Origin: a virus
Taxonomy: Duplodnaviria; Caudoviricetes
IMG/VR virus record: IMGVR_UViG_3300033076_001145
Location: 32,001-96,000 of that record
Reading direction: 5' to 3' (one strand)
DNA length: 64,000 bases
Shown: positions 11,611-62,880 of the stretch, one piece after another
Numbering within the stretch: position 1 is the stretch's first letter
Layout: each line of letters begins with the position of its first letter
The notes under the pieces: generated by a model
What the model was told of the DNA's origin: nothing
Database searches by the model: none
Seen by the model: the letters and a program-made list of their open reading frames with translations, nothing else
Made by a program: the position numbers and the translations under genes

Positions 11611-13119
11611 ATGTCAGTACATTTTTCGTATTTTAAAAAGAACAATACAATACTATATAATAGTTTTACTAACACTGGTAGAGCCCCATATACTCAATTG
11701 TATTTTGGTTCATATAACGATGGGATATCCTCACCAGGGTATAGTCGTTTTATTTTTGACTTAGACCTAACCGACTTAATTGACAAATATACAGGAACCA
11801 CAATTTCCACAGCTTGTACTCAAACACCAATGAGACACATCCTTAAAATGACCAATACTTCGTCATTTGATGATTCATTATTAAACAGTGAAACCTCAGA
11901 TGGTAGGTTGAGAGCAACATCATTTGATTTATTTTTATTTAGATTACCAAAAACTTCTGGTGACACTGGGACATATCAAAATTGGGATGAAGGAGTTGGT
12001 TCGGATTATTATGACGTTAAAAAAACAATTAATTCTTCTAACTCATTACTTACCCCAGTATTATTACCTGATAATAAAAGTTTTTCTCAAAGACCTTCCA
12101 ATTGGTATCACGCAACAACTATATCAGGATGGTCTCAAACAGGTATCTACTCCAATACAAATTCAGGGTTAGTAAATTATAGTGGATTAACAATCATTGA
12201 TACTCAACATTTCCAATTTGGTAATGAGAACATTGAGTTTGATATGACAAATGAAATTAACTCAATTCTTAACGGAACATTGACAGGTGTTACAGGGTGG
12301 GGAATTGCTTATCATCCTGATTTAGAAACAATGTCGGGATTAACGGCAAACTATTCTGTCGGGTTCTTTACAAGACATACTCAAACATTCTACGAACCAA
12401 AATTAGAAACAGTATATGATGATTACGTTAATGATAATAGAAATAATTTTTCTCAATATAAAGAAAATAAATTATATCTATACTCATATATCAATGGGGA
12501 ATTAACAAACTTAGATTCTCCTCCCATTTTTTCACTATTAGATAGTAATAATAACTTTGTTAATTTTGGTAATGGGGTAACTGAATTATCAACTTGTTTG
12601 AGGACAAAAGGAATCTACGAGGTAACAATACCGGCTTTAAGTGCTTCAGCTCCTTGTACATTCTACGATGTTTGGAGACCAATAAATTATAACGGAGTTC
12701 AATTACCTGAGATTGTTAATTCTGTAATTATGTATCCGTTTGAATCTTATTTTGATTTAGGATTTAAAAGTAAAACTCCGTCAATTTATGGGTTTGATTT
12801 TTATGGTCTAAAACAAGATGAAAAGATTGTTAATAACGACCTTAGAAAGGTTGGGGTTTCAATAAAGAAAGCGTATTCAACACAAGAAATCTTAAATGAT
12901 GTTTCGGCATATTATCGAGTATATGTTAAAGAAGGGACAACTGAAGTTGATGTTCAGGATTGGACTAAAATTAGTAAATCATCAAACGAATACTTCTTTT
13001 TCTTTGACACAAGAGACAAAATACCCAATGAGTATTTTATCGATTTAAAAGTTTTAAGTTCAGGAGAAGTTAATACATATAAACAACAAATAAGATTTCA
13101 AATAGTAAATCAAAAATGA
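11611..13119 (+). CDS. putative virion structural protein (S/T/G-rich, beta-rich)
   Basis: SRFIFDLDL, WDEGVG, FFTRHT..YEPKLE; TATTTAT upstream. Confidence 0.55.
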   Translation: MSVHFSYFKKNNTILYNSFTNTGRAPYTQLYFGSYNDGISSPGYSRFIFDLDLTDLIDKYTGTTISTACTQTPMRHILKMTNTSSFDDSLLNSETSDGRLRATSFDLFLFRLPKTSGDTGTYQNWDEGVGSDYYDVKKTINSSNSLLTPVLLPDNKSFSQRPSNWYHATTISGWSQTGIYSNTNSGLVNYSGLTIIDTQHFQFGNENIEFDMTNEINSILNGTLTGVTGWGIAYHPDLETMSGLTANYSVGFFTRHTQTFYEPKLETVYDDYVNDNRNNFSQYKENKLYLYSYINGELTNLDSPPIFSLLDSNNNFVNFGNGVTELSTCLRTKGIYEVTIPALSASAPCTFYDVWRPINYNGVQLPEIVNSVIMYPFESYFDLGFKSKTPSIYGFDFYGLKQDEKIVNNDLRKVGVSIKKAYSTQEILNDVSAYYRVYVKEGTTEVDVQDWTKISKSSNEYFFFFDTRDKIPNEYFIDLKVLSSGEVNTYKQQIRFQIVNQK

Positions 13120-13778
13120 GAAGGATTAAACTAACCGAAAATGACTTAATTAACATAGTTAAAAGATTAATTAACGAGTCGAAACACGAATTTCAAAATT
13201 ATGAAGATTCTATTTTAGATAAAATATCTTCAGATGGTTTTGAATCATTGTCAAACATTGAAAAAACGATACTAAATAATGTAAGTTCTGAGAATTTCGA
13301 CACAAAACCAATTATGTTAATGATTGCTAAAAAAATTGCAAGTAGAGAACAATTGACAGATATTGAAAAAATGTTTTATGACGAATATTCTGTTTCTCCT
13401 GTTGAAACTAAAGGTAGGGAGTTGGAACCCAATGTAATATATGATGCCGGAGATGATGAAATTCCAGCATCTGACGATAGGGAGAATAAATTCACATTTG
13501 AGGACCCAAAAGGACAAATTCCGTCAATGTCATTTGAACTTTCAAAAATATACTTCACAGATAAATATTTAATTTTCCAAGGTACATTAGAAGTTGGGGA
13601 TACTCAATATTACGGAAAGATATTTACAGACCCAAATGGGGAATATTTGGGTAATAAATTTAAAAGTGAAAGTCAAACATCTCCTAATGATGACTATGAA
13701 TCAACTCCGATTGACGCATTTTTAACAGTTGCAGCACAACAATTAAACCAAGATGACCAACAAAACAATGAATATTAA
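13116..13778 (+). CDS. leader-bearing hypothetical protein (putative head cargo)
   Basis: N-terminus MRRIKLTENDLINIVKRLINES. Confidence 0.7.
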   Translation: MRRIKLTENDLINIVKRLINESKHEFQNYEDSILDKISSDGFESLSNIEKTILNNVSSENFDTKPIMLMIAKKIASREQLTDIEKMFYDEYSVSPVETKGRELEPNVIYDAGDDEIPASDDRENKFTFEDPKGQIPSMSFELSKIYFTDKYLIFQGTLEVGDTQYYGKIFTDPNGEYLGNKFKSESQTSPNDDYESTPIDAFLTVAAQQLNQDDQQNNEY

Positions 13779-14292
13779 TGAAACAATAAAAAAGATTCTT
13801 AAAGAAGAATCTGAAAGATACATGTTCTTTAGTAATTTAGAACAAATGAGAAGACAATGTGACCTATTATTAGATTTAGACCGTAATATGGTTGAGGGAA
13901 TTTTATCCAATGGTCATGATTGGGCTCAGGACCACATTGCCGAAGCGAAGAACAATATGGACCAAGTATTTGATTTTTTAATGAACGAATTAAATGAAGG
14001 GAAATCTGATGAAATGATGGAAGATGTGGGGTTAGAAGATTTAGCAATTGCTGATGAGACTGACGGTAAAATGACTCCTGACCAAGCGGTTGCATTGTCA
14101 ATGACAGAAGGTCGTAAAAAAACGGGGACAAAACTATGCGCTCGTGGTAAATCAGCGGCTAAGTCAAAATTTAAGGTCTATCCCTCAGCCTATTCAAATG
14201 GTTACGGAGTCCAAGTCTGTAAAGGTAGAATGCCAGGACTTGATGGTAAAAAAAGATGTTCTCCACCATACTGTGGTTCTAAGAAAAAATAA
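13768..14292 (+). CDS. leader-bearing protein with basic Cys-rich C-terminal module
   Basis: MNINETIKKILKEES; after MTE: GRKK..CARGK.AAK.KFKVYPSAY.NG...C. Confidence 0.7.
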   Translation: MNINETIKKILKEESERYMFFSNLEQMRRQCDLLLDLDRNMVEGILSNGHDWAQDHIAEAKNNMDQVFDFLMNELNEGKSDEMMEDVGLEDLAIADETDGKMTPDQAVALSMTEGRKKTGTKLCARGKSAAKSKFKVYPSAYSNGYGVQVCKGRMPGLDGKKRCSPPYCGSKKK

Positions 14293-14337
14293 TTTTTTTA
14301 GTTTATCTTTCTATTGTTTATCCATATATTTATATGT

Positions 14338-14826
14338 ATGGATAAACAAAAAAAATGTAAAGTTTGTAACCTTGTAAAATCAGAAGATGAATTTTACAAA
14401 TCACAAAGGGGTTTGAAATGTAAGACCTGTGTATTAGAAATTACAAGAAAATATAAAAGAAATAAAAGAAAAGATATAGAATTCAGATTAAATGAAAGTG
14501 TCAAACAAAAAGAAAGGAGAGTTCGTCTGTGGCAAAATACTTTAATTCACGATTCAAAGTATAGAGGTGTTGAAAATACTTTAACGGTTAATGATATTAA
14601 TGAAATGTTTGAAAATCAAAATGGATTATGTTATTGGTTCAAAGTCCCATTAATACCGTCAAACAATAAAAAACACCCACAACAACCATCTTTAGATAGA
14701 ATTGATAGAAATAAAGGTTATACAAAAGATAATGTCGTTTTATCTTGTTACTCCGCAAATATTGGTAGAAATGAAACTGATATTGATGAGTGGGAAAAAT
14801 TTTTAAAAATATTGTTAGTTCAATAG
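14338..14826 (+). CDS. HNH/endoVII-like endonuclease with Zn ribbon (possible homing endonuclease)
   Basis: CKVC...CKTC; QNGLCYW...SLDRIDRNKGYTKDNVVLSC..AN; start reassigned to the ATG 4 nt after TATTTAT. Confidence 0.75.
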   Translation: MDKQKKCKVCNLVKSEDEFYKSQRGLKCKTCVLEITRKYKRNKRKDIEFRLNESVKQKERRVRLWQNTLIHDSKYRGVENTLTVNDINEMFENQNGLCYWFKVPLIPSNNKKHPQQPSLDRIDRNKGYTKDNVVLSCYSANIGRNETDIDEWEKFLKILLVQ

Positions 14827-14862
14827 TTTTACCATATCTTTGTGAATATATTCATTAATGAT

Positions 14863-15279
14863 ATGAACCCCCTGAAAAAACAATACTACAAACTTAGAAT
14901 CTTATTAAGAAATAATTTTTCTAGACCTGACCATGTTATCGAACAAAAGAAATATGAGTCATTATGTGTCAATGTTGCAAAGTCCCTAATAAAGGACAAA
15001 AATTCAATATTGGTCTATACCCCTAAAAGTTTCAAATACTATATTAAAAACCAAAATCATGGTGTTTATATGGTTATCTGTGATGCAGTTCTTTCAGTCA
15101 CAAACCACAAGTACTCCTACGAAATCAAATTAACCCCAAAAAACGAACGAAAACTAATTAATGTATTCGAGAACGAATTAGAAAAAAGAGGTGAAATTTA
15201 CGACACAGAAATGATTTTACAAATAAAAGATTCATTAACTGATATTTATAATAAAATAATAAGTGATGAACAACAGTGA
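14863..15279 (+). CDS. hypothetical protein
   Basis: ORF preceded by TATCTTTG; start uncertain (14842 GTG or 14863 ATG). Confidence 0.6.
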   Translation: MNPLKKQYYKLRILLRNNFSRPDHVIEQKKYESLCVNVAKSLIKDKNSILVYTPKSFKYYIKNQNHGVYMVICDAVLSVTNHKYSYEIKLTPKNERKLINVFENELEKRGEIYDTEMILQIKDSLTDIYNKIISDEQQ

Positions 15280-15457
15280 ATTAAAAAAAACAATTAGAAA
15301 ACATCTATTGGAAGGTTTTGCAAAATACTCTAAATTTGAAAGAGCTATGATAATCCAAGATGTTTTGGATAGAGTTGGCCAATATGAGGATGAGTATGTA
15401 AATGCTTTAAGAGAATTCAACTCTAACTTCCCATCAACAATGTATAAAAGAGATTAA
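15263..15457 (+). CDS. small leader-bearing hypothetical protein
   Basis: MNNSELKKTIRKHLLEG. Confidence 0.6.
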   Translation: MMNNSELKKTIRKHLLEGFAKYSKFERAMIIQDVLDRVGQYEDEYVNALREFNSNFPSTMYKRD

Positions 15458-15846
15458 TCAAAAATCTCTTTTTCTTTTTTCTTATTTTTTTTAATAAAAA
15501 GTTTTGTAACTTCTCCAGACTTCGCGTTTGCAAAATTTTCGGATTCCCCTCCAATATCCTTTCTATCTTTAATATTTAATTTTTCATGGTCATACGCATG
15601 AGCCCACTCGTGTGACAGAGTTCTTAATACATCCGCAAACATTCTCCCCTTAAATAAAATACGAATTCTGTCTTTACCATTATTATATGAACCTGTAGTC
15701 ATGTCTTTAGTTTTTTCGTCTAATAACATTATTTTTAAATCATTCTCTAATGGCATTTTAGTTTGTAATAATTTACAAAATTTTTTTAAAAGTTCGAGTT
15801 GAGTTTTTTTAACCGTATTTTTTTTATATTTAAAACAAATTTTCAT
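15454..15846 (-). CDS. zincin-like metallopeptidase (HExxH)
   Basis: VLRTLSHEWAH...SENFAN. Confidence 0.65.
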   Translation of the reverse strand: MKICFKYKKNTVKKTQLELLKKFCKLLQTKMPLENDLKIMLLDEKTKDMTTGSYNNGKDRIRILFKGRMFADVLRTLSHEWAHAYDHEKLNIKDRKDIGGESENFANAKSGEVTKLFIKKNKKKEKEIFD

Positions 15847-16540
15847 TTAAAGTCGATAATATTTTTTTTATCAAAATCTCTTCATTAGTCTTTTTCTTTT
15901 TGTAAGAAACCATTTTAGGCTTATTACCTGTACCACTCTTAGGATTGGTTTTTTCAGCTCTTCTTTTTTGAGCACAAGCGGCCTTTTTTTGAGAATCGGT
16001 CATTTTACCTGCAACTCCCGCAGCTCTACATTTAGGATAACCTTTATCTTTTGCTTCAGGTCTTCCACAAGGTGGATGTTTTCCATCTACTTTTCTACAA
16101 ATATTAACCCATGGACCTTTAGGTTGCTTACTACCCTTAGGTTTCTTTTTAGTTCCAAACCATACTCCTAAATCTTCATTAACAAATGGTTTAGATGCAT
16201 CTTTAATTTTTAAAGAATTACCATTATTTAATATATCCCCATCATCATCGTTTTGTATAGGGTGTTTTGACATGTAGTTACTAATTTTTTCAGATTTTTT
16301 CTCCATTTTTTTAATTTTATTTTTTGGAGTATCCATACTTCCATCATAACTATCATAAGCCAATTCCGAGTTATCATATTTTGATACTGGTTCATTGAAT
16401 GGGGATAACTGTGACTTTTTAAATTTTCTAAATCCCGGCATTATTGGAGCACTATAAGAACCTCTTCCTGCGGAGTCCGCAGTCGACTCATTTACAGGAC
16501 TAAATACCTTATTGATTATCTCATTAATATTTCTTATCAT
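15830..16540 (-). CDS. leader-bearing protein with basic Cys-containing module
   Basis: MIRNINEIINKVFSPVNES; after VNE: DLGVWF...WVNICRK...CGR....YPKCR. Confidence 0.7.
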   Translation of the reverse strand: MIRNINEIINKVFSPVNESTADSAGRGSYSAPIMPGFRKFKKSQLSPFNEPVSKYDNSELAYDSYDGSMDTPKNKIKKMEKKSEKISNYMSKHPIQNDDDGDILNNGNSLKIKDASKPFVNEDLGVWFGTKKKPKGSKQPKGPWVNICRKVDGKHPPCGRPEAKDKGYPKCRAAGVAGKMTDSQKKAACAQKRRAEKTNPKSGTGNKPKMVSYKKKKTNEEILIKKILSTLNENLF

Positions 16541-16852: not shown

Positions 16853-18721
16853 TTATCTTAACTCGTTTAAGTCGAATGTACGTACTCCATCAACTGTGAT
16901 ACGTCCGAAGAAACGGTTGTTAACCATCTTCTTAGCGTAACGTGTCATGATACCTTTGATAGGTGTGAAGTTGAATGGGTTGTACATAGTTGGTGTTAAT
17001 TGTAATGGTACGTATGGAGCGTAGATGTAACCAGTATCCAACAAAGAAGTACCTTTGTGACCAATCAAGATAGTGTTTGGTGGGAAGTATGGGTCACGAT
17101 ACACTTGGTAACGTCCACTCAATGTTCCAACTCTTTCAATACCCATGTTATATTGGTCTTGCTCAGGAGCTGCGTTTGATACGTGGAAGTATTGTAAATC
17201 ATCAAAAATCGCAGAGATTTCAGAAGATACAACAATCCAGTTAGCACCACCTCTCAAAGTAGACTTGTGGATTTGAGCTGAGATTTGGTTAATCGCAGTA
17301 ATCAAAGTTTGGTTCCAGTCTTTTTGAGTGTATGGAGTTGCTTGGTTATTCAGTCTCTTCCATCCGTTGTAATCCCAACGTAATGTCCAAGCCGCACCTT
17401 TACGTAAGTCACGTAAGATTTCACGGTCAATTTCAGCCGCAACTTGCTCTGACAATAATGCTGTCAATTCAGCTTCAGCATCGATGTTGTGGAATGCCGC
17501 AACGTCTTGAGCCAATTCAGGAGACCATTGTGCTCTTAACTTTCTTTCAGTTACAGAAACTGTTACTGACTCTAAGTTGAAAGAAACTTCACCAATTTTG
17601 TCTTCGAATTCTAATTCTTCATAACGTCTCCAAGCCGCTGTAATATTAGTAGTACCTGACCATACAGAGTTGGTTAATGTTGCTCCTGAATAACCGTCAG
17701 GTGTTGATTGAGAACATGCAATACATGCAGGAACTTGTGTGTCAATCTCTAAATAAATTACTCCCGCCGCATTACAAATGTTATAAAAACTACCACCATT
17801 ACCGTCAGTTGGATATGTAGTTTTTGTTTGAGTTCCGTAATCAACAATACCGCTACCGTATTTTTGAGTAACAACACGATAAAGTAGTGGAGTCGCAGTA
17901 GAAGTTCCTAAATTAGTCGCAGCTGCTGAAACATTTGTAAATAACACTAAATTAGACAAAAATGATTCAGTATCCATTTCTTGACCATCAGGACCTATTA
18001 ATTTTCCGTCCCCAACTGTGGTAAATCCAGATAAACCAACAATGATTTTTCTAAATTCTTTAGTTCCACTAGCGGCTTCACCATTTACAGTATAACCTGA
18101 AACAATCAAATTACCATTACTCCAAGCAACTGTTTGAGTAAGTGCGGTCATTACTGTAAATCTTCCTTTAGAATAATCAAATAAACCAGCAGGATTTAAT
18201 CCAGGTTCAGTACCTTCATAGAACAAATCGTAAAGATTTTTAGCATATGGAGTACCAACATTTGACCCAGGATAACCAGCATTTGCATCTCCACCATAAT
18301 TCCCTGGAGAACCTTGTGGTGCGAAATGGTCACCTGAATTAGTATTTCCTCCGGGATATAGAGCGTTTGTTGAAGCTCCAGTATATCCTTGGATTTGAGG
18401 TACGAAGTAGAACAATTTACCGATTGGTAAGTTCATAGCTTGTACAGAAACGATGTCATTCGCTAACAATTTAGAGAATACACGTCTGATGATTGGGAAT
18501 ACAACAGTTTCAAATGAACCTGAATCCGCAGTTGATGATGACTCGTTGATTAAGTGAGAAGCTTGGTTCTCATACAACTGTGCAACATTTTCTTTTAGGT
18601 GGCCTCTAAGACCTTCTAGGAACCCTAATTTGTCCCATTTGCTTATAGTGTCTTCTTTGATAACTTTAAGGTGCTTAAGACCGATGTTACCAACTAATCC
18701 ACTTTCTAATAATGCTCCCAT
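16853..18721 (-). CDS. major capsid protein (T4 gp23-like) with large insertion
   Basis: IRRVF..L.A.DIVSVQAM..P.G..F, RKLRAQWSPELAQD...H.IDAEAEL..LLSEQVAAEIDREI, YAPYVPL, TRY. Confidence 0.97.
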   Translation of the reverse strand: MGALLESGLVGNIGLKHLKVIKEDTISKWDKLGFLEGLRGHLKENVAQLYENQASHLINESSSTADSGSFETVVFPIIRRVFSKLLANDIVSVQAMNLPIGKLFYFVPQIQGYTGASTNALYPGGNTNSGDHFAPQGSPGNYGGDANAGYPGSNVGTPYAKNLYDLFYEGTEPGLNPAGLFDYSKGRFTVMTALTQTVAWSNGNLIVSGYTVNGEAASGTKEFRKIIVGLSGFTTVGDGKLIGPDGQEMDTESFLSNLVLFTNVSAAATNLGTSTATPLLYRVVTQKYGSGIVDYGTQTKTTYPTDGNGGSFYNICNAAGVIYLEIDTQVPACIACSQSTPDGYSGATLTNSVWSGTTNITAAWRRYEELEFEDKIGEVSFNLESVTVSVTERKLRAQWSPELAQDVAAFHNIDAEAELTALLSEQVAAEIDREILRDLRKGAAWTLRWDYNGWKRLNNQATPYTQKDWNQTLITAINQISAQIHKSTLRGGANWIVVSSEISAIFDDLQYFHVSNAAPEQDQYNMGIERVGTLSGRYQVYRDPYFPPNTILIGHKGTSLLDTGYIYAPYVPLQLTPTMYNPFNFTPIKGIMTRYAKKMVNNRFFGRITVDGVRTFDLNELR

Positions 18722-18754: not shown

Positions 18755-20245
18755 TTATTTTATTATTTTTGACATAATGTCTTTCATTCTCAGGAATTGA
18801 GGATTTTCATATGTTTTTGATTCAATCAAATTAACTGATGAACCTGACTTTTGGTCGGTATCAATAATTCTTTCAATTGATTCAGTAACAGGTTTTCTCA
18901 CATCTTCTCCTGACAACTCATCTTTAATTGTTTTATAAAGAGCTTTAGACTCTTTAATAGTTTCTGCAGAATCAAATCTTCTCAAAATGTTAATTTTTTC
19001 TTGCTTAGACGTTGAATGTTCTGTGAACAATCTTGTAGCATATGCCAAATTAGAATTAAATATAGCAACTTCGTTAAGTTTATCTCTAAACATATTTAGA
19101 GCCTTTCTATATTCTTCATTTTTAGCCTTTAACGTTTCGACTTCTCTTTGAACTGACTCGGTGTGTGTTCTCGCACTTTCTTGTCCTGCTCTTGCACCTT
19201 TTTTCAAAGCTCCTTTTCTCCAACCTGTACCATAAGTACGAGCCGCTTCGGTAGCTTCTTCTTTAGATAATTTGATACCTGTTCTACTTGGCATTTCAAA
19301 AGTTTCACCTTCTTTAAATTCGAATTTCGCTTTACCCATACCAACACCTTTAGTACCTTGTTTCATCTTTTCTTTGAATCCTCCTGTAGATTTTTTATAT
19401 GAGAATTTAGAAGCCGAACCTGTCTTAGCTCCTTTACCTACTTTAGGTTTAGAAGATAATTTAGATTCATAAACGTTATCCATTTCTTCTAACTCGTCTT
19501 CATCATTGTCATCATCTGTAGCGTCCAAAGCAATTTCATAAATTGTTTCATCCATTTCTTCTTCTGACCATGACTCATCCATTTCATCATACTCTGATTC
19601 ATACATTTCTTCTGAATCCTCTTCCATTTCGTCTTCTTCGTGCATTTTTGACTTAGGAACAAACATTGCGTCTTTTGTATTTGACTTTACTTCTTTTTCT
19701 TTCTTCTCTGATTTTTCTTCGAATAATGAATCATCCATATCATCAAAATCTTCTTCGTCTTGGATTATGTATTCTACGTCTTCAGAATCATCAGTTAAAT
19801 GAATATAATCACCGTCTTTTGTTACTGTGATTTCATCTTCAGCTGACATTGCTTTGAAAACTTTCAATACTTCCTCGTCAGAAGCGTCAGTTAAGTCAAT
19901 GGTTTCATCATCCATATCAATGTCCATGTCATTCATACCCATGTCGTCAGAATCGTCATCGTCCATGTCCATGTTATCCATGTCCATTTCTAATTCGTCT
20001 TCATCATCACCTGAGATTTCCATGTCATCCACATCAATTTCGTCAGAATCTTCATCTTTGTCGATATCAATCATTTCGATATCGTCTGATTGTTCATTAG
20101 TCTCATTTTTCATAGACTCTTTTACTAATTCGCTAATTTCTTCCTTCATTGTAGAAGCAAGTATTTCTTTTGCGTTTTCGTTAATAACCTCTTCCAAATT
20201 TTGAATTTGGATTAATGTTTCTTCAACTAAATTTTTTTCTGCCAT
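18755..20245 (-). CDS. prohead scaffold/core protein
   Basis: Directly upstream of the MCP; very acidic centre, coiled-coil C-terminus, many [ILVM]-x-E sites. Confidence 0.8.
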   Translation of the reverse strand: MAEKNLVEETLIQIQNLEEVINENAKEILASTMKEEISELVKESMKNETNEQSDDIEMIDIDKDEDSDEIDVDDMEISGDDEDELEMDMDNMDMDDDDSDDMGMNDMDIDMDDETIDLTDASDEEVLKVFKAMSAEDEITVTKDGDYIHLTDDSEDVEYIIQDEEDFDDMDDSLFEEKSEKKEKEVKSNTKDAMFVPKSKMHEEDEMEEDSEEMYESEYDEMDESWSEEEMDETIYEIALDATDDDNDEDELEEMDNVYESKLSSKPKVGKGAKTGSASKFSYKKSTGGFKEKMKQGTKGVGMGKAKFEFKEGETFEMPSRTGIKLSKEEATEAARTYGTGWRKGALKKGARAGQESARTHTESVQREVETLKAKNEEYRKALNMFRDKLNEVAIFNSNLAYATRLFTEHSTSKQEKINILRRFDSAETIKESKALYKTIKDELSGEDVRKPVTESIERIIDTDQKSGSSVNLIESKTYENPQFLRMKDIMSKIIK

Positions 20246-20577: not shown

Positions 20578-21297
20578 TTATTTTCCTAAATAATCGTTTA
20601 ATTTATTCATTAAATCAAGTGATTTTAATCCACCTCTCTCTAAATTTTGTAATTTTTCCTCTTGTAGATTTTCCTCAAATTTGTATTGGTCATCTTTTTC
20701 TTTGAATAGGTACGCTCCAGGTGTGGATGGTGCTTGGACTAAGTCAAAACAGATTAATTCAAAGTCGTCCTGAACTTCGTTTTGTTCTCCCACTTTTTTT
20801 AATGAACCAACACCTCGAGATGATATACCCAAAGTGACACCAAGTCTTAATAGATTAGCCGCTTGGTCTCCCTTTGTAGATACAATACCTCTTTCATGAA
20901 ATCCTGGTGACGTTAATAATTTTAATTTACCAATTAAAATATTTTTATCCCACCAAATATCAGTTATAATATGAGATACTCTATCCAAATCAATTAATGA
21001 TGATTCGGGGTGATTAAGTTCAGACAATGCTGTATTTTTCTTAATATAATTTTTAGTATAGTTATCTGCTTCTCTTTTTAATACTCTTTCAGGATATATT
21101 CTACCATTTCTATTCGGGGTATTAAACTTTTGTAACACCGCATAAAACTCAAATGGTTTAGAATAATCACCCACTTCGAATGATTCTTTTATTATTCTAT
21201 CATTAGAGAATTCAATGGGTGACACATACCCTGCGTCATATTCAACAAGAATTCCCTTACCCGTATCTTTTGGCCCTAAAATTTTATAATTTTGCAT
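20578..21297 (-). CDS. prohead protease (T4 gp21-like)
   Basis: NRNGRIYP, ELNHP, LDRVSHII, GISSRGVGS, FDLV..PS.PGA. Confidence 0.95.
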   Translation of the reverse strand: MQNYKILGPKDTGKGILVEYDAGYVSPIEFSNDRIIKESFEVGDYSKPFEFYAVLQKFNTPNRNGRIYPERVLKREADNYTKNYIKKNTALSELNHPESSLIDLDRVSHIITDIWWDKNILIGKLKLLTSPGFHERGIVSTKGDQAANLLRLGVTLGISSRGVGSLKKVGEQNEVQDDFELICFDLVQAPSTPGAYLFKEKDDQYKFEENLQEEKLQNLERGGLKSLDLMNKLNDYLGK

Positions 21298-22615: not shown

Positions 22616-24430
22616 TTAATCATTTAACAAGTTTTTCAAAGTACTGTCCATTTCGAGTAATGTTTTTTTGGCTTTACTCAAATCTATCTCCTCATTGTCA
22701 TTCGCCCAATCACCTTCCAATATAATATTTAGTTTGGTTTCCATTGATTCGGGGGCTAATCCAGGTCCTCCTGCCGGTTCAGATGGAGGTGCCGGAGATT
22801 CAGATGGTGGTGGTGGGGTAAATCCTCCACCTATATCACCACCAGGTGTTTCTCCACCTTCAGCAGGTGCTGCGGGTTGTTCTCCTTCTTTCTTACCATA
22901 TAATCTATCTAAATTATCAAATAAACCTGTATGTGTAATAACCTGAGCAGTATTTGTTAATTCTGCCCCTACCGCCTTTTCAATTCTTTGTTGTTGTAAA
23001 TCCAACTTAATTTCTTCATCAGAAAATCCTAAAATATGTTTCTTAGCCCATGATATTGATGTAGGAGCAATTCCTTCAATCGGAGAAACCATGTCTTTAT
23101 ATAGTAGAATCTTTTCTTTCCATACATCAACTCCCAACAAATCAGCTTGTTTTGATGGGTTAGTTAATGACAATGTAAAGTTGGATATTTCATCTTCAAA
23201 TCCAAGTAAGAATAAATGTACAATAGCAATTTTATTCAATTCCTGTAACATACTTTTTTGTATTCTATTGATAGTTCTCGCAAAACGTATGTCCATAAGT
23301 GCTAAGTTCTTACCGTCACCAACAGACTCCTCAAATCCTAAAAATCCTTTAGGTACTCTTAACGCTGTTAATAATTTCTTTTGGATGTACTCAATATCCG
23401 CAATTTCAGAAAGGTTTTGAGCTCCAGGTAGTGTCTCAATTGGAGATGCTTGTGACGGGTCACGAACAGGAACAAAATAATCTTGGTCGACGGCCATTTG
23501 ATTAAATCTCATATCCACATTTCCACTTTGTGGGTCAACGGTTTGAGACCTTTTGAATTTATTTGCAAATCTTTGGATATATGGTTCAACATCCGCATCA
23601 TCCATATTACCAACAAATACCTTAAATACCCTTCTTTCAGGTGCTCTTGATGTTCTATAAATTAACATCGCATCTTCAGACAATAATAACTGTTTCCAAA
23701 TTCTTCTCGCCTTTTCCAACATAGAAGTCCCATATGGTAATCTTCTATCGTCACCTAACAATCTAAAGTGAGCAATTTCCCAAGAATTGAATTCCATATC
23801 CTTTTGTTTCCATTTGAATTTTAGAACTCTTTTAGATGGGTCAGTTTCAGGGTCAGTTTTCTTAACGCCCATTCCCGCCTCATGTCTTTCAATCTCAATG
23901 TTTGGTAATTGCATACATCCAACAACTCCCTTTTCAGGATTCAATTTTAAGAATACAAAGTTGTCACCATACTTACATGTGTTTCGAGTCCACATTGGTA
24001 AGTTGGTATTGATGTCCAAAGAATTAATAAATAAATCGACTAATATTGATTTGATTCGTTTTGAATCAGAATAGATTTGTAGGATGTGTCCATCTTGGTT
24101 AGATGTAGTCGATTCTTCAGCATATATATCCAACGCCGCTGAAATCTCAGGAGTAAATTCCATCGATTCATAATCATAAAAAGATGCCAATCTTGTTGGT
24201 TCATAATATACCGCTTGGGTATAAAGATTGTTTTCAATCCTCCCCCATTGGTTTGCCAAATAGTATGTTTGTCTGGCTTCTAATTTTTCTTTTTCATATT
24301 CTTGTTTAGAAGTTGTCTTTAAAAGTTCTTTCTTATCGAATGAATACGTTGGGTAATCTTGTCCCAATAGTGAATTAGGTCCAAATGCCTGTGATAACCT
24401 TTGCCAAACTGTTAAATTTTTTTCACTCAT
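22616..24430 (-). CDS. portal protein (T4 gp20-like)
   Basis: EDAMLIYRTSRAPERRVFKVFVGNM, DYFVPVR, IETLPG, DIEYIQKKL..AL.VP, RFARTINRIQ. Confidence 0.95.
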   Translation of the reverse strand: MSEKNLTVWQRLSQAFGPNSLLGQDYPTYSFDKKELLKTTSKQEYEKEKLEARQTYYLANQWGRIENNLYTQAVYYEPTRLASFYDYESMEFTPEISAALDIYAEESTTSNQDGHILQIYSDSKRIKSILVDLFINSLDINTNLPMWTRNTCKYGDNFVFLKLNPEKGVVGCMQLPNIEIERHEAGMGVKKTDPETDPSKRVLKFKWKQKDMEFNSWEIAHFRLLGDDRRLPYGTSMLEKARRIWKQLLLSEDAMLIYRTSRAPERRVFKVFVGNMDDADVEPYIQRFANKFKRSQTVDPQSGNVDMRFNQMAVDQDYFVPVRDPSQASPIETLPGAQNLSEIADIEYIQKKLLTALRVPKGFLGFEESVGDGKNLALMDIRFARTINRIQKSMLQELNKIAIVHLFLLGFEDEISNFTLSLTNPSKQADLLGVDVWKEKILLYKDMVSPIEGIAPTSISWAKKHILGFSDEEIKLDLQQQRIEKAVGAELTNTAQVITHTGLFDNLDRLYGKKEGEQPAAPAEGGETPGGDIGGGFTPPPPSESPAPPSEPAGGPGLAPESMETKLNIILEGDWANDNEEIDLSKAKKTLLEMDSTLKNLLND

Positions 24431-49032: not shown

Positions 49033-49059
49033 AAAAAGGGATTTAAAATCCCTTTTTTT
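49031..49059. terminator. bidirectional terminator
   Basis: A7-GGGATTT-a-AAATCCC-T7. Confidence 0.75.
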
Positions 49060-50051: not shown

Positions 50052-50192
50052 ATGGCAGCAAAAGTAGCAAAAGGTTCAGGGTCAGCTAAAATTAGTTTTG
50101 GCTCAAAAAAAGTAGGTAAATTCTCTAAGAAACAATCACCAAACAAAAGGTCGAAAAACTACAAAAAACCTTATAGAGGACAGGGAAGATAA
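50052..50192 (+). CDS. 46-aa highly basic peptide ending YRGQGR (not in the ORF track)
   Basis: MAAKVAKGSGSAKISFGSKKVGKFSKKQSPNKRSKNYKKPYRGQGR*; TACTTAT upstream. Confidence 0.75.
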   Translation: MAAKVAKGSGSAKISFGSKKVGKFSKKQSPNKRSKNYKKPYRGQGR

Positions 50193-53040: not shown

Positions 53041-53778
53041 ATGACAAATGTTTCAGAAGAAATTTTAAATTTTATAAATTCAGAGTATTCAAAAGAGGTT
53101 CTACCTGATATTGCAGTCATTACTGAAATGAGAGGTAGTGATAGTATAAGACAATCAATTGATGTTTATAACTACGGAGATGTCAATTATTATTATTCTC
53201 CATATTTTGACACGGGGTCAAACAAAGATTTAGATGTTGGTTATATAAAATCATATTTAGACTCCCTTTATAACACAATTATCAATAACGACCCATTTTT
53301 CAGAGACGAGTTATATAAAGAATATGGTGATGATGTCAAATACTTTTCAATTACTATAGTTTTGAATTTTGAAACAAAAAAATTGGAGCTTAGTGGTTAC
53401 GGTATTGAGGACTCAACAGATTATTCTCAAAGTGAGTTTGAATTTACCGAAAATGATGACAAAGAAATATACGATGTGTTAGAAAATTATCTCAATCAAG
53501 GATATGAATATATTACTGTCAATTTTTCAGGTGGAGGTGATTCAGGTCAATTAGATGGTTTTTATTCCGGAGGGTATCCGATTGAAGAGAATGGAGTATT
53601 GGAGGATGCTCTTTACACCCTATTAAATCAACATCAAGGAGGATGGGAAATTAACGAAGGTTCTCAAGGAGAATTCGATATTAATTGTAAGGATAAGACA
53701 ATAGTTCTAAACTTCGGAATGAACTACGAAAGAGAGATTGATTTTGATAATGATTGGGAAATAGATTTAGATTTTTAA
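53041..53778 (+). CDS. DUF6878-like protein
   Basis: V.FSGGGDSGQ...GGWEINEGSQGEF; start 4 nt after TATTTAT. Confidence 0.65.
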   Translation: MTNVSEEILNFINSEYSKEVLPDIAVITEMRGSDSIRQSIDVYNYGDVNYYYSPYFDTGSNKDLDVGYIKSYLDSLYNTIINNDPFFRDELYKEYGDDVKYFSITIVLNFETKKLELSGYGIEDSTDYSQSEFEFTENDDKEIYDVLENYLNQGYEYITVNFSGGGDSGQLDGFYSGGYPIEENGVLEDALYTLLNQHQGGWEINEGSQGEFDINCKDKTIVLNFGMNYEREIDFDNDWEIDLDF

Positions 53779-54101
53779 AAAATCTGAATTGTTCTTTGTG
53801 GTCTGTCGTCACCAAAGTCAGGACAAAAATAAATATTCTTAGCATCGTGGTAGATTGTTCCACCAATTCCATTTGGAATTTTGTGTTTTTCCATGAACTT
53901 ATCATCAACATCAATTTGGTGATTGCCGTCATGAACTACAAAACATTTGTTCTCAAAAGAACAATGATATTGTTGTGATTTATTTTTTTCTCTGAAAAAC
54001 TCTTCAGGAGACATAACATATCTTGCAACATTTTCATTCATCAATTTCTTAACAACTTTCTCTAACTGACTCTCAGTTATATTGATAATTTTCTTTTTCA
54101 T
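53775..54101 (-). CDS. leader-bearing small protein
   Basis: MKKKIINITESQLEKVVKKLMNE. Confidence 0.7.
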   Translation of the reverse strand: MKKKIINITESQLEKVVKKLMNENVARYVMSPEEFFREKNKSQQYHCSFENKCFVVHDGNHQIDVDDKFMEKHKIPNGIGGTIYHDAKNIYFCPDFGDDRPQRTIQIF

Positions 54102-54124: not shown

Positions 54125-56074
54125 TTATTTCCAACCGTTTTTATAAATATTAAATTCTTTAATTCTTCTTTTTAGATTCGCCCAATTGGTTGTAAAATAC
54201 TTCTCAACCGAATTACTATTAGGATTTTTTTGAATTACTTTTGCCAAATTAGAGTTACGATATCCCCCAAGCCCTGCATTATAAACCAAAGAAAGTAATG
54301 CGTCTAATTGATTTTGTTTTAATTTATCATGGTTAGGAAGACTAAGTAATCTCGGTAATAAATTATCTAGTTTTTTTGTAACTAAATTATGAGCTTGTTG
54401 TTTATTTACCTTACATTCAATATCCTTTACTCCAATTTTTTTCTCTTCACCATATGTTCTACCACAAAACTGTGCCCCTTTTGGTATATATACAGTCCCA
54501 TATCCGATAGTTAAAGTTCCTTTAGGGTTTGTTCCAGGTTTATAACATTTAGGTGGGTAGTATCCATCATCATAAACACAAGGAACAAATTCCTCAACTG
54601 CCTTTAAATAATTCACAAGATTAGATGAGTATGTCTTTGCGTTTCCAACTGGTTTAGATGTTAATTTTAACATCTCATCTCTCGTATAAACTTTTCCTGT
54701 CTTATCGTTCCACAATCCTGCCTGTTTTAACCAATTAGTGTCAATATCATTCTTTGTCCCGACATTGGTCCCTTCTTCCACCGCCATCCAAAAACGAGTA
54801 AAGTTTTGTTTTGCCTTATCCCAACCATATTTTTTAACACTTGCATTAAACCAAGTTTTCCAATCGGCAAATTTCCACCAACTATCTGGACCCCAATCAT
54901 CTAAATCGGGATGTGAATCTGGGTTTTTAGGGTCGGCGCCTTCTGTTTCATTTAAATGGTTTATAGACTCAGTAGTTTCAGGTTTCAAAACCGTCATGGC
55001 TTCAGGAAAATCTTTATCCAAAACTTCTTTGTTTTTATTCTCATATGGTATGTTTTGTAAAACATATCTAATAGCATTTAACCCTGAAACTCTCTTATCA
55101 TTTGCATCCAAAATAACCCATGGATGATTTACAGTTGATGTTTTATCAAAAAGTTTTTGTTTAAATTCCGAGAATCTGTCCCACATATCTTGCATTTTCT
55201 CGTCATTAGGAGAGTATTTCCAATACTTTATGGGTGATTGTTGTCTCATTTGGAATCTCTTAGCCTGAGTCTCCTTATCAATAGAAAACCATAACTTAAA
55301 CAGATAATCTCCGTCTTTTACAAGGTCTTTTTCAAAATCTTCAACATTATTCATGAAATCCTCATATTCCTCAGGTGTTCCATAACCCATAACAGGTTCA
55401 ACAAGGCCTCTATTATACCAACTTCTATCAAAAAAGTTAATCATACCTTTTTGAATTTGGTTTCTATATCTATCCCACCAAGCCTTTCTCTCCTCAGGTG
55501 TTGGAATACCTAACGCAATGATATTATAGTATCTTGGATTAAGATTTTCTGTGAATTTTTTTATTGTGGACCCCTTTCCTGCTGAGTCTCTTCCTTCAAA
55601 AACAATAATAACAGTCTTACCTGTTTTCTTTATCCACTCTTGCATTTTTAACAACTCAACTTGTAAGTAGTATAATTCTTTATTATACACTTTTTTCTTA
55701 ATCATTGAGGGTTCCTGAGGTTCAAATGTAAATTCTTCAGGTTCTGGTTCCCCATCTTCAAAATCTTGTTTGTTTCTTTTTTTAAGAGTTTTTAAAATGG
55801 TTTGAAGATATTTTGTAATGTTCTTTTTTTTGTCACCTTTTTTCATTAAAATATTACGGACACCTCTTTCCAATAAATCAAAGTTGATTGGGTGTTCATA
55901 TCCTTGGTCTAGTATTTCATATAATAATACCTCGACATCCTTGGTGTATAATTTATTCTGTTTTAAAATATTTGATATTACAAATTCATAATCCTCTGCG
56001 GATTTAACATCTTCGTTTATTTTTACACCTAATAAACTTCTAAACCTATTAACTTCTGAAATTAATTTTTTCAT
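54125..56074 (-). CDS. ppk2: leader + polyphosphate kinase 2 + Trp-rich domain + GH24 lysozyme fusion
   Basis: LQVELLKMQ, EGRDSAGKGSTIK, FDRSWYNR, R...P.K.WK.SPND; C-terminal E..VPCVYDD, TIGYGT, QNQLDAL.SLVYN.G, L.RR..E. Confidence 0.88.
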   Translation of the reverse strand: MKKLISEVNRFRSLLGVKINEDVKSAEDYEFVISNILKQNKLYTKDVEVLLYEILDQGYEHPINFDLLERGVRNILMKKGDKKKNITKYLQTILKTLKKRNKQDFEDGEPEPEEFTFEPQEPSMIKKKVYNKELYYLQVELLKMQEWIKKTGKTVIIVFEGRDSAGKGSTIKKFTENLNPRYYNIIALGIPTPEERKAWWDRYRNQIQKGMINFFDRSWYNRGLVEPVMGYGTPEEYEDFMNNVEDFEKDLVKDGDYLFKLWFSIDKETQAKRFQMRQQSPIKYWKYSPNDEKMQDMWDRFSEFKQKLFDKTSTVNHPWVILDANDKRVSGLNAIRYVLQNIPYENKNKEVLDKDFPEAMTVLKPETTESINHLNETEGADPKNPDSHPDLDDWGPDSWWKFADWKTWFNASVKKYGWDKAKQNFTRFWMAVEEGTNVGTKNDIDTNWLKQAGLWNDKTGKVYTRDEMLKLTSKPVGNAKTYSSNLVNYLKAVEEFVPCVYDDGYYPPKCYKPGTNPKGTLTIGYGTVYIPKGAQFCGRTYGEEKKIGVKDIECKVNKQQAHNLVTKKLDNLLPRLLSLPNHDKLKQNQLDALLSLVYNAGLGGYRNSNLAKVIQKNPNSNSVEKYFTTNWANLKRRIKEFNIYKNGWK

Positions 56075-58153: not shown

Positions 58154-58600
58154 TTATTTTCTCTTAGTCTTTCTTCTAACGATTGACTCTTCCATATAAT
58201 CTTTATAATGTCCATCAACATCACCGATTTTTTTACCATCTCTTCTTTTGTAATCGTCTTTGTTTCCTCCCCATTCTTCTTCCATCTCACCTTCCATTTC
58301 GTTACCACCTTTTGGTTGATTTTTCTCAACGAAATCTAAAATTTTCTGAGCTTTCTTTTCCTTACCTTGAGCCATTAATTCTTCGGCCATTGATTTTAAA
58401 TAATCATACCCTGCAATACCTAATAAACCAATCACTGTGCCAATGATAGTATAGATAGCGTCAGCTGTTTCCATTGCTTCAGGATTTACGAAATTTTCCA
58501 TTTCATTAATTCTTCCGCTTTTTGTATTTTTTGATTCTTTAACTACTTTTTTAATTATGTTAGTTAATTCACTTTCTGTTAATCTTACAACTTTTTTCAT
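58154..58600 (-). CDS. leader-bearing protein with one TM helix
   Basis: MKKVVRLTESELTNIIKKVVKES; AIYTIIGTVIGLLGIAGY. Confidence 0.72.
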   Translation of the reverse strand: MKKVVRLTESELTNIIKKVVKESKNTKSGRINEMENFVNPEAMETADAIYTIIGTVIGLLGIAGYDYLKSMAEELMAQGKEKKAQKILDFVEKNQPKGGNEMEGEMEEEWGGNKDDYKRRDGKKIGDVDGHYKDYMEESIVRRKTKRK

Positions 58601-59147: not shown

Positions 59148-59152
59148 ATGTC

Positions 59153-59704
59153 TTACTGAACCATGGTTTGATATTTCCTACCACATATGAATAAATTATT
59201 CTTAAACCATTTTGCAATATCATTTGAATAATACTCATCCCCAACATCGGTTTGTCTCATTTTTGAAACTTTTTCACTTCCTTTAACTGTTGTATTGGTT
59301 ACACTGTCTTCAATCCCTGCGTAATCAGGATTTATTTTTGGTTTGTTTAATAATTTAAAAGTATTTGCCTGACAATCAAATTCAAACATTATTTCTCCAA
59401 GATATTTTGGGTTATCAGTCCCTTCCTCTAATGTTCCTGAGATTCTTACAGTTTGTAATCCTTTAGATGTGATGACTTCAACTTTTTTTAAATGAACATC
59501 CAAATTTTGTTCTCTGTTAAACATTCTTTTCTTCTCAATGAAACCATATTTAGGGTTTGTTTTTAATAACGAATTAATTCTATCAGTTCTTAACGTAGTT
59601 AATTGGTCCGCTTGTTCAGAAACCAATGATTGTTTCACTGCCGTTCTATGCATTTCGAGGATTCTATTTTTCTCGTTCTCTTCAACTAAAAATATTTTTT
59701 TCAT
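59153..59704 (-). CDS. leader-bearing protein; paralog of the C-terminal domain of 59726-60925
   Basis: MKKIFLVEENEKNRILEMH..LVSEQ. Confidence 0.72.
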   Translation of the reverse strand: MKKIFLVEENEKNRILEMHRTAVKQSLVSEQADQLTTLRTDRINSLLKTNPKYGFIEKKRMFNREQNLDVHLKKVEVITSKGLQTVRISGTLEEGTDNPKYLGEIMFEFDCQANTFKLLNKPKINPDYAGIEDSVTNTTVKGSEKVSKMRQTDVGDEYYSNDIAKWFKNNLFICGRKYQTMVQ

Positions 59705-59725: not shown

Positions 59726-60925
59726 TTATTGAGTTTTATTTAAACCACACAATTTTAAATTTGTTTTTAATAGTTTGTAAAAATCAGTATTTGCATATTC
59801 CCCAAATCTTTTTCCTAATGGTAATGATTTTTGGTCAACCACACCCGCATCAGTAACTAATTCGTTAGGATAATCCAAAAGTTCAAAATACCCAAATTCA
59901 TCGCATTTTAAAATTATTGCAACTTTATCTTTGTAATTAGTAAAATCTCCAATAACAACGCAACTATCTAACCCTTCATCCTTAGTGATTATTATGTTTT
60001 CAATTTTAACCTGAATATATTTTTGGGTATTATTTTTTTTCCTAAATGTTAATAATCTTTCAGTTTTTAATAGGTCCTCAATAATCTTATCCCTCCATCC
60101 TTTTTCTTTAGGTTTAGGGGGTTCAGGTTTATCTAATAATATTTTCATGGAGTTTATTCCACTAATTTGAACAGTTTTAGGATTATATCCTTCCTTTTTG
60201 ATTGTTATTGTAATTGGAAATTTGAAGTCGTTATTTTTGAAGGTGTCATTATTAATTATAATTTCTTCTCCATTATAATCGGCAACCACATTATTTATTT
60301 GTTGGTCTGTTACTTTATCATAAACTAAAATATTCAACGGTTTTAAATTAAATGAATATTCGATTGGGTCCCCATTGAAATCTATAAATTCAATTTCATA
60401 ACCTCTCTTCAAAATTTTTATTTCAGAATTTTTTTTGATTCCTGATTTTTTAAATTTTCCGTTTTCATCTGTCTCACCTATAATCTCTTTACCGTCGTTA
60501 CCTGTGTATATAATTTTTACTTTTGGTAATGGAGAACCCTTTTCATCATTAACCACTAAATTAATATCGTTTTGTTCCTGTATATCTAATGTTTTTAATT
60601 CGTCAGAAGTTAAAGTAATATTGTAATTTGTTTCAGTTGGACTTAATTCTTGTTGGTAGTTTTTATATCCGACAAATCCAACTCCAAATTTTGAACTTTG
60701 TGGTGTTGTGGTAATTGTTGCTTGTCCTTCACTATTTGTTGATGTTCCGTCAATCGCCTTTCCTTCTGAATTATAAATTATAACACTTGCACCGGGTATA
60801 GTCTCTCCATTATCTGATTTAACAGTAAATGTTACACTTTTATTGGATTGTTCATTCAACAAATTCTGATACAAATTCAGAATCTCTTGTCTTTCATTCT
60901 CAGTTATTAAAAATTTTTTAGACAT
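59726..60925 (-). CDS. leader + carboxypeptidase-regulatory-like (SusC N-terminal-like) repeats + C-terminal domain
   Basis: MSKKFLITENERQEILNLY..LLNEQ; GETIPGASV...GT.T..EG...FVGY; ETDENGKF...GYE. Confidence 0.72.
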   Translation of the reverse strand: MSKKFLITENERQEILNLYQNLLNEQSNKSVTFTVKSDNGETIPGASVIIYNSEGKAIDGTSTNSEGQATITTTPQSSKFGVGFVGYKNYQQELSPTETNYNITLTSDELKTLDIQEQNDINLVVNDEKGSPLPKVKIIYTGNDGKEIIGETDENGKFKKSGIKKNSEIKILKRGYEIEFIDFNGDPIEYSFNLKPLNILVYDKVTDQQINNVVADYNGEEIIINNDTFKNNDFKFPITITIKKEGYNPKTVQISGINSMKILLDKPEPPKPKEKGWRDKIIEDLLKTERLLTFRKKNNTQKYIQVKIENIIITKDEGLDSCVVIGDFTNYKDKVAIILKCDEFGYFELLDYPNELVTDAGVVDQKSLPLGKRFGEYANTDFYKLLKTNLKLCGLNKTQ

Positions 60926-60963
60926 ATATCTTATAAATACATATTTTATTGTAAATTTGTAGT

Positions 60964-61624: not shown

Positions 61625-61653
61625 GATACTATAATAATAAATTAATCTAAAAA

Positions 61654-61770
61654 TTAAATTTCTTTTTTAATTTCTTTCAACACTTCAAAGTTTTTTTGAA
61701 TCTGTTTCATTCTCTTTGCGAAATTTGCTCTGTTTCTTGTTTTGTTTTTTGGTTTTCTTGCCTTTGACAT
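61654..61770 (-). CDS. 38-aa basic peptide (not in the ORF track)
   Basis: MSKARKPKNKTRNRANFAKRMKQIQKNFEVLKEIKKEI*; TATTTAT upstream. Confidence 0.55.
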   Translation of the reverse strand: MSKARKPKNKTRNRANFAKRMKQIQKNFEVLKEIKKEI

Positions 61771-61808
61771 AATTTTCTTTTTTCGATAAATAGTGTTATA
61801 TTTGTATT

Positions 61809-62336: not shown

Positions 62337-62656
62337 TTATCAAAATTTTTGCGTTCATCATACCATCCTCTTGTTTTCTCATAATGTTCGACTGTTGAGT
62401 GACTTGAGATAACTCTTCCTGAAAAATTAAATGTTCTATTTACAGTCCTAACAAGTTCTCTACCCCAAGAGTGTAGGTTGTCAGATTCATCTTTAGAGAA
62501 TGGTTTTTTAAATAATATAGTTATGCGACACATAATACCATATTGACTTTCATACACATCAACAGCAGCACCTGCGTAATTATCACTCAAAGGATAATCA
62601 TCAAGATAAACTTCCACGAAGTTTTTTATTACCAATTCTAATTCTGTGGGTTCCAT
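62333..62656 (-). CDS. hypothetical protein
   Basis: ORF preceded by both motifs (TATATTTG-TATTTAT). Confidence 0.65.
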   Translation of the reverse strand: MEPTELELVIKNFVEVYLDDYPLSDNYAGAAVDVYESQYGIMCRITILFKKPFSKDESDNLHSWGRELVRTVNRTFNFSGRVISSHSTVEHYEKTRGWYDERKNFDN

Positions 62657-62666
62657 TTAATATAAA

Positions 62667-62710
62667 TACAAATATAAACAAAAAACCCCTCTTTATGTGT
62701 GAGGGGTTTT
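62667..62710 (-). promoter_or_regulatory. terminator fused to a TAnnTTTG promoter
   Basis: AAAACCCCTC...GAGGGGTTTT hairpin; 25-bp near-copy of 58095-58119. Confidence 0.65.
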
Positions 62711-62730
62711 CAAAAATGAATTTAAACTTA

Positions 62731-62880
62731 TTATTCGTTCTCAGACAATGGTTTAGCGTCTCCAAGTTTGGTATTAACAAGTTTATTAAAATTTTCAATC
62801 ATTATTTTTTTTCCTCCAGTGTGTTGTTCACGGATTCTATTTTTTTCTTCCTCAGAAAGGTCGTTCAATAAGTGTTTCAT
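62731..62880 (-). CDS. 49-aa leader-only gene (not in the ORF track)
   Basis: MKHLLNDLSEEEKNRIREQHTGGKKIMIENFNKLVNTKLGDAKPLSENE*; TATTTAT upstream, terminator downstream. Confidence 0.7.
   Translation of the reverse strand: MKHLLNDLSEEEKNRIREQHTGGKKIMIENFNKLVNTKLGDAKPLSENE

Follow-up and report, generated by a model that had tools for sequence, protein, structure and literature searches.

In the uncultured giant T4-like phage recorded as IMGVR_UViG_3300033076_001145, many proteins that are otherwise almost all unrelated to one another begin with one of a few short N-terminal leaders, which fall into four classes (A to D) and are nearly all encoded in late-type transcription units with the same promoter motif as those of the phage head genes. 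The leaders are probably T4-style capsid-targeting propeptides, that is, address peptides by which diverse proteins (hereafter cargos) would be brought into the prohead and from which they would be released by the prohead protease. The window analysed here is a stretch of 64,000 nucleotides corresponding to bases 32,001-96,000 of this one virus record of 208,634 bp (about 30% G+C), and searches were extended to the whole record and to related phages.

Statistical support for the leaders

When the first 40 residues of 269 proteins were compared all against all, 140 similar pairs were obtained; internal segments of the same set gave 35 and C-terminal ones 37. Hidden Markov models (HMMs) of the four classes, scanned in six frames over the whole record, match N-termini only and find no internal copies in the phage's own genome. 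Across all predicted proteins they define 28 members (nine in class A, four in B, two in C and 13 in D), 13 of which are encoded inside the window, and only one pair of the 28 cargos is related at E < 1e-3. The same holds for the relatives, represented for the leader counts by 1.06 Mb of viral loci found with a DNA pattern of class A, where class A matches are N-terminal in 231 of 235 cases and class B matches in 35 of 35. Pfam and PHROGs hold no family for any leader, nor for most of the cargos, and the ESM Atlas returned nothing for the 527-residue class C cargo.

An earlier note on this DNA had listed about 20 unrelated proteins with such leaders. Every N-terminus that it quoted is present at its coordinates and on its strand, including that of the 49-residue open reading frame (ORF) 62731-62880; its four classes are recovered at N-termini by the HMM scan of this record, and the scale that it had placed beyond the three internal proteins of T4 proves larger than it thought, with 28 genes in a record whose completeness CheckV puts at 71%. 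The list itself stands in part: most of its leaders have class support, but the items at 46665, 44138, 50726, 16540 and 62880 lie below HMM significance. Of these, 16540 can be kept, since its orthologs have class D-type leaders in the corresponding position, and for 44138 and 50726 no support for a leader was found. Two carriers had been overlooked, namely 29127-29945, which matches the class A HMM and is among the 13, and 27581-29125, which matches no class HMM.

The common ending that had been proposed, [ILV]-x-E, is enriched at the N-termini of genes behind the promoter motif TATTTAT (77%, compared with 45% of random 35-residue windows), but taken alone this loose rule is weak, and because it fits so many random windows several of the listed class D items are weak too. 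A stricter form with two hydrophobic residues occurs in 41% of the TATTTAT-gene N-termini and in 14% of internal windows, a threefold enrichment. The frequency of the loose motif is what would speak for an artefact of chance or composition in an AT-rich genome with proteins rich in Ile, Leu, Lys and Glu, an explanation that accounts neither for class HMMs matching N-termini only, with E-values down to 1e-20, nor for thousands of external N-terminal matches, nor for a degenerate DNA pattern of the class A core that is met in more than 119 stretches of IMG/VR (a lower bound) and 11 times in 596 Gb of cellular genomes. Chance is thus ruled out for classes A, B, C and the core of D and is possible only for single weak items; as an account of the leaders as a whole we give it next to no weight.

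Sequence features of the leaders

The leaders start at Met1 and span 13-30 residues. In the relatives the class A consensus reads MKKVIRLTESDLxRIVKRVIxE, and the boundary of this class is sharp: conservation, judged in the columns left free by the search pattern, extends up to a Glu kept in 94% of about 200 sequences, beyond which a variable acidic linker follows. Class B has an MKKFIITE-like start, RILxMH in the middle and Y-L-x-E at the end, usually followed in the relatives by Gln; the class D type is MNLQESIRRILRE. Classes A and D share a core of the form hydrophobic, basic, basic, hydrophobic, hydrophobic, x, Glu, and both are strongly amphipathic and basic, with hydrophobic moments of 0.55-0.79 compared with a control mean of 0.27.

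A shorter form, the mini-leader, consists of 7-8 residues of the MKYIITE type. With classes A, B and C it shares a hydrophobic-Thr/Ser-Glu element within the first 12 residues, which is found in 16 of 76 TATTTAT genes, in 12 of 291 other genes and in 3.5% of internal windows. This element may be a second cleavage site.

Portability and exchange of leader classes

The same leader is carried by a very wide range of proteins. Searched against 1.84 billion representative proteins, the class A profile matches 6,728 clusters at E <= 0.001, all of them unnamed metagenome proteins; among the best 150 of these clusters nearly all matches lie at residues 1-25, in proteins 29-751 residues long, with one clear false positive, a repeat protein. 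The 199 class A cargos of the relatives form 132 BLAST groups, 98 of which are singletons.

Leaders are also exchanged on one and the same cargo. The RYMFFSNL family has a class D leader here (13768-14292) and a class A leader in three relatives (L020, L115 and L119), and the orthologs of the basic protein encoded beside the capsid gene (15830-16540) carry D-type leaders which vary in sequence but share one end junction; both cargos bear A-type or D-type leaders depending on the phage. Since orthologous cargos carry different leader classes, the tag is a separable module, and by this pattern of exchange classes A and D look functionally equivalent. In the idea of portable modular tags that load cargo, as the earlier note had framed it, portability (the 132 groups and the A/D exchange), co-regulation, the terminal Glu and the presence of a protease thus hold good, while entry into the head, cleavage and injection are carried over from T4.

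Some relatives have polyprotein-like genes with internal copies of the leader. Of 50 such copies, 34 have hydrophobic-x-Glu within 15 residues ahead of them, a frequency to be compared with 35% of control windows, and the usual form is hydrophobic-x-Glu-Asn/Ser followed by Lys-Lys. A separate observation concerns the YLDxQDF paralogs of this phage, which are about 100 residues long, lie beyond the window and occur in three forms: bare, with an 8-residue mini-leader and with a full class A leader.

Co-regulation with the head genes

Two promoter motifs divide the genes of the phage. Every head gene belongs to a unit headed by TATTTAT, and so do 25 of the 28 leader genes; among other genes the figure is 120 of 339 (odds ratio 15, p = 2e-8). 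No leader gene (0 of 28) belongs to a unit headed by TAnnTTTG, a Bacteroidota-type motif that precedes an RNA ligase gene and other early-looking genes. The association claimed earlier, of leader genes with TATTTAT and not with TAnnTTTG, is therefore borne out by the enrichment test, and the leaders are not equally frequent in early genes. It recurs in the relatives, where TATTTAT stands upstream of 188 of 304 leader ORFs and of 350 of 1,473 others (p = 2e-36). This association of promoter motifs points to late expression of the leader genes together with the head genes. A late sigma factor at 6693-7439 was not confirmed by family searches.

TATTTAT ends 4-6 or 12-19 nucleotides ahead of the ATG and TAnnTTTG about 4 nucleotides ahead (examples of motifs close to the start are 22616-24430, 54125-56074 and 62922-63440), and because both motifs sit so near the start codons, many early and late mRNAs would be leaderless or nearly so. 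The conserved stretch could on these grounds act at the level of nucleic acid, either as a recombination handle by which genes are shuffled or through a need of nearly leaderless late mRNAs for translation, and T4-like phages are known to have promoter-linked shuffling cassettes (PMC4122927). Codon usage speaks against it: among class A copies, 133 of 250 identical residues differ in their codon, and identity at third positions is only 42%, which argues that selection acts on the peptide and not on the DNA. The codon test rules out an element of this type, and we regard the explanation as highly improbable.

Head module, candidate capsid maturation site and protease

The head module occupies 15.8-31.8 kb on the minus strand in T4 gene order, with portal, two small proteins, protease, a gene in scaffold position and capsid. 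The major capsid protein has a candidate maturation site, L-I-N-E, at residues 57-60 (18542-18553), ending at residue 60 and so agreeing with the site near this residue that had been predicted; it is invariant in 14 relatives, a marine relative whose capsid protein is 65% identical has L-L-N-E at this place, and the capsid sequence turns variable right past its Glu. The acidic protein 18755-20245 has no family match in Pfam or PHROGs, so its scaffold role is deduced from gene order; it contains several conserved hydrophobic-x-Glu sites with Ser next. Scanning the head proteins for conserved sites has little power to discriminate, since their orthologs are 50-80% identical; weight can be given only to sites that persist at 24-47% identity. 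Among these are the L-I-N-E of 27581-29125, kept in orthologs only 24-28% identical, and the V-N-E of 15830-16540, conserved at 47% identity. The latter gene lies just downstream of the capsid gene, and its product is a candidate for a major DNA-associated internal protein, comparable to the basic internal proteins of T4.

A gp21-type protease of family Peptidase_S77 is encoded within the module, and the family is present in 21 of the 50 largest leader-bearing viral contigs, in all four complete ones and in nine of the ten that are at least half complete. The cargo regions are depleted in the two-hydrophobic-x-Glu motif, with an observed/expected ratio of 0.82 compared with 1.13 in other genes of the same phages (ratio 0.72, 95% confidence interval 0.60-0.87), and a size-matched control agrees. 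Such depletion is what proteins exposed to a protease of this kind would be expected to show.

The leader might instead be recognised by other phage machinery, either the ClpC-like AAA+ unfoldase (32900-34948) or a modifying enzyme. All four complete relatives have the ClpC-like gene, as does the contig of the marine relative, a distribution that fits as well as that of the protease; the Glu boundary and the motif shared with the capsid protein favour the protease, and we know of no Clp degron similar to the leaders. As to a modifying enzyme, no radical S-adenosylmethionine (SAM) gene occurs in the record or in the four complete relatives: a maturase of the radical SAM type, as for ribosomally synthesized and post-translationally modified peptides, was rejected on the lack of any PF04055 match there, in a search whose control was positive in all 14 named genomes, and the cargos, moreover, include enzymes of 400-650 residues. 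Recognition by such machinery is accordingly rather improbable.

The clade and its distribution

Capsid proteins of the leader-bearing contigs are 73-85% identical to that of this phage, so that these contigs represent one clade of phages with genomes of about 260-320 kb. Its complete members have 8-14 class A genes and 3-12 class D genes each. The nearest deposited phages, with about 37-45% capsid-protein identity, are a Microcystis phage, uncultured huge phages and Flavobacterium phage immuto; in the last of these (capsid protein 42% identical) no class D match was found. A 64-kb contig (contig 9; L154, L156, L162 and L163), binned with a marine Prochlorococcus single-cell assembly, is a relative of this phage. 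It encodes the 65% identical capsid protein mentioned above, an S77 protease and its own class A and class D leaders, and the clade therefore has a marine branch.

Leader genes and cargos in the window

The genes in question are collected in Table 1. Of the cargo domains that had been proposed, PPK2, phage lysozyme and the immunoglobulin-like (Ig-like) domain are confirmed, the OmpA-like match lies under the Pfam cut-off, and for the proposed transmembrane cargo no strong transmembrane segment was found among the HMM-defined members. The PPK2-lysozyme fusion has orthologs with the same leader in two loci (L009 and L010). Many cargos are tiny proteins out of paralog arrays.

Table 1. Leader-bearing genes, head genes and related features (window coordinates, except for the last row).
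Position	Strand	Feature	Evidence
13116-13778	+	Class A leader (13116-13178, 21 residues) on acidic 220-residue protein	HMM E = 1e-12; TATTTAT unit
13768-14292	+	Class D leader (13768-13806) on conserved cargo of RYMFFSNL family	HMM
15266-15457	+	Weak class D-like leader on 63-residue protein	HMM E = 0.02; TATTTAT directly upstream
15830-16540	-	Basic 236-residue protein, net charge +23; leader (16487-16540) ends V-N-E	Class D-type leaders of orthologs
16853-18721	-	T4 gp23-type major capsid protein	PDB gp23 E = 3e-24
18755-20245	-	Probable scaffold protein, acidic, in T4 gene 22 position	Gene order
20578-21297	-	T4 gp21-type prohead protease (Peptidase_S77)	PHROG 207 E = 8e-46; PDB 5jbl E = 3.5e-16
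22616-24430	-	T4 gp20-type portal protein	TATTTAT ahead
27581-29125	-	514-residue head-module protein; L-I-N-E ending at residue 23 (29057-29125)	No class HMM match
29127-29945	-	Class A leader ending at residue 39 (29829-29945) on 272-residue head-module protein	HMM E = 1e-11
32900-34948	+	ClpC-like AAA+ ATPase, starting at first ATPase domain, without N-terminal domain	
40873-42456	-	Class C leader (42388-42456) on 527-residue protein	TATTTAT at -11
42477-44138	-	Weak unclassified leader candidate on 553-residue protein	No HMM support, no Pfam match
44770-45195	-	Class B-like leader on 141-residue Cys-rich protein	HMM E = 0.05
46665-47294	+	Mini-leader on 209-residue protein; two hydrophobic-x-Glu sites in first 16 residues	TATTTAT upstream
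47549-48151	-	Class D leader (48113-48151) on 200-residue protein	HMM E = 6e-7
49058-49984	-	Class B leader (49895-49984) on 308-residue protein with weak OmpA-like match	TATTTAT at -23
50726-51472	+	Leader candidate on 248-residue protein	No class support
53775-54101	-	Class A leader (54033-54101) on 108-residue protein	HMM E = 5e-11; TATTTAT at -12
54125-56074	-	Class C leader (56012-56074) on PPK2 + phage-lysozyme fusion, 649 residues	PPK2 E = 9e-72; Phage_lysozyme E = 5e-12
58154-58600	-	Class A leader (58535-58600) on 148-residue protein	HMM; orthologs in L009, L010
59153-59704	-	Class B leader (59615-59704) on 183-residue protein	HMM E = 3e-20
59726-60925	-	Class B leader (60851-60925) on 399-residue protein with Ig-like / CarboxypepD_reg domain	HMM and domain match
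62731-62880	-	49-residue ORF, little beyond class B-like leader	
102034-103390, 152395-152802, 154889-159685		YLDxQDF family copies (L003, L005, L006), genome coordinates beyond the window	

Three smaller observations belong to this region. Residues 20-57 of 13116-13778, right behind the class A leader, give a Pfam match to DUF6576 just above the cut-off. A 46-codon ORF at 50052-50192 (+), between two divergent late genes, encodes a peptide of extremely basic character with much Lys, Gly and Ser. The gene 24470-25768 (-), placed between those of the terminase and the portal, encodes a 432-residue protein with matches to beta-propeller repeats (DUF5122, Rax2), an unusual position for such a gene in a T4-type head module.

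Proposed mechanism and competing explanations

From T4 precedent we infer docking, cleavage, packaging and ejection as follows. Cargo genes would be transcribed late from promoters of the TATTTAT type, which also serve the head genes, and the cargo products would start with a short, mostly amphipathic basic helix that docks the cargo onto the scaffolding core during prohead assembly. The gp21-type protease (20578-21297) would then cut after the terminal Glu of the leader, just as it would cut the capsid protein past L-I-N-E at residue 60, and the scaffold as well, and the cargo freed inside the head would leave with the DNA at infection. The T4 prohead protease acts only inside the prohead, and for this reason cleavage would imply packaging. 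Because the address would be seated in a small N-terminal module, it would be movable between genes and exchangeable between classes, and each phage of the clade would thereby get its own set of dozens of head-internal proteins.

Several observations weigh against this reading. The class A leader has no detectable similarity to the T4 tags, with no T-even match in 50,697 records (the formal comparison being one of class A), and tblastn of the leader against these deposited phage records returned only chance-level matches to Enterococcus phages, so that no cultured carrier of class A was found. One class A member ends in Lys-Lys and not in x-Glu, and several individual class D-type assignments rest on a motif often given by chance. 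Class A-like leaders also occur in two bacterial metagenome-assembled genomes (MAGs), a human-gut Bacteroidaceae (L157:5837-6868) and a rumen Prevotellaceae (L160:165-776); these Bacteroidales copies look chromosomal, one lying beside housekeeping genes and the other beside a transposase, and an S77 protease was not found in either MAG. The depletion of the cleavage motif could come from a different fold make-up of the small cargos. Finally, leader, protease and ClpC-like ATPase are all traits of a single clade, and for that reason their co-occurrence cannot separate the possible partners.

Some of these points would suit a leader that is neither a capsid address nor removed, but a retained docking or oligomerisation helix tying late proteins to something else, for instance to the tail, to DNA, to the cell membrane or to a target in the host. 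The strongly amphipathic, basic character of classes A and D is what one would look for in such a helix, as are the member that lacks the terminal Glu, the copies in MAGs in which no S77 protease was found and the many tiny cargos from paralog arrays. A retained helix nevertheless leaves unexplained the sharp loss of conservation past the Glu, the identical motif at the end of the capsid propeptide, the hydrophobic-x-Glu ahead of the internal copies and the motif depletion in the cargo. We consider it unlikely, though the most credible of the alternatives, and retain the capsid-targeting propeptide as the probable function.

Comparison with T4 and other phages

In T4, capsid-targeting sequences of 10-19 residues are found on diverse internal proteins (PMC9026906, PMC3012670). 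They combine affinity to the scaffolding core with a gp21 cut after Glu, and their sequence is kept even though the cargos differ greatly (PMC9026906, PMC3012670, PMC5694885), and those on IPI, IPII, IPIII and Alt are cited as being removed by gp21 (Mullaney & Black 1996, as quoted in PMC9026906 and PMC5694885). The present phage resembles T4 in the short N-terminal propeptide with a hydrophobic-x-Glu end, in the presence of the same tag on unrelated proteins, and in its gp21-type protease, gp23-type capsid protein, head gene order and late expression (deduced here from the promoter motif). It differs from T4 in its longer leaders, in at least four leader classes of which A and D are exchanged on orthologous cargo, in about 28 carriers in a partial genome compared with four in T4, and in the repeated internal leader copies in polyprotein-like genes of relatives; the function, too, is here read from sequence. 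The proposed mechanism itself is most likely the one known from T4, on a far larger scale. New relative to T4 would be the tag sequences, the four or more classes, the scale, the repeated internal leaders and the PPK2-lysozyme fusion as a predicted cargo.

A further parallel is offered by the polymorphic internal-protein loci of T-even phages, where, by the account of Repoila et al. (1994) given in PMC3012670, diverse and fast-changing cargo goes with a targeting sequence that alone is conserved; the same source describes these proteins as thought to be injected anti-defence proteins. Unlike those loci, the cargo genes of the present phage are distributed across many islands; enzymes (PPK2-lysozyme) and proteins with Ig-like domains are among their products, and one of their tags matches thousands of clusters.

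The phiKZ-like giant phages (201phi2-1, phiKZ and SPN3US) also have many head-internal proteins cut after Glu by a gp21-related protease, with several cleavage sites per propeptide and diverged paralogs with conserved N-termini (PMC5694885, PMC7411985); in SPN3US, propeptides that are cut at several sites are known alongside an ejection protein that contains a membrane segment (PMC5694885). There, however, propeptides are mostly longer than 100 residues, the motif is Ser/Ala-x-Glu and no small portable tag is shared by unrelated proteins, whereas the phage described here belongs to a different lineage and has Ile, Leu or Val two residues before the Glu. We found no published description of such an expansion of T4-type leaders.

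Significance

Taken in its widest form, the finding would concern a lake and marine clade of T4-like jumbo phages in which a small code of interchangeable address peptides loads dozens of proteins into each virion, out of a cargo pool of thousands of families that includes the PPK2-lysozyme fusion and polyproteins with excisable internal leaders. No repertoire of phage-injected proteins known so far would come near it in size, and it would be readable from sequence; we put it forward tentatively, as a possibility that falls somewhat short of an even chance. Should the reading fail, it would still have to be explained why a 22-residue peptide is preserved almost without change on unrelated late proteins in their thousands. 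If it is true, the first 15-30 residues would show which proteins of uncultured phages travel in the capsid, without recourse to proteomics, and thousands of candidate injected effectors (for example anti-defence proteins, wall-degrading enzymes or nucleotide enzymes) could be catalogued from hosts that do not lend themselves easily to study. The longer tags would also be new tools for packaging foreign proteins in phage heads, a use to which the T4 tag is already put, and the T4-type head would be seen to diversify its contents through the swapping of tags.

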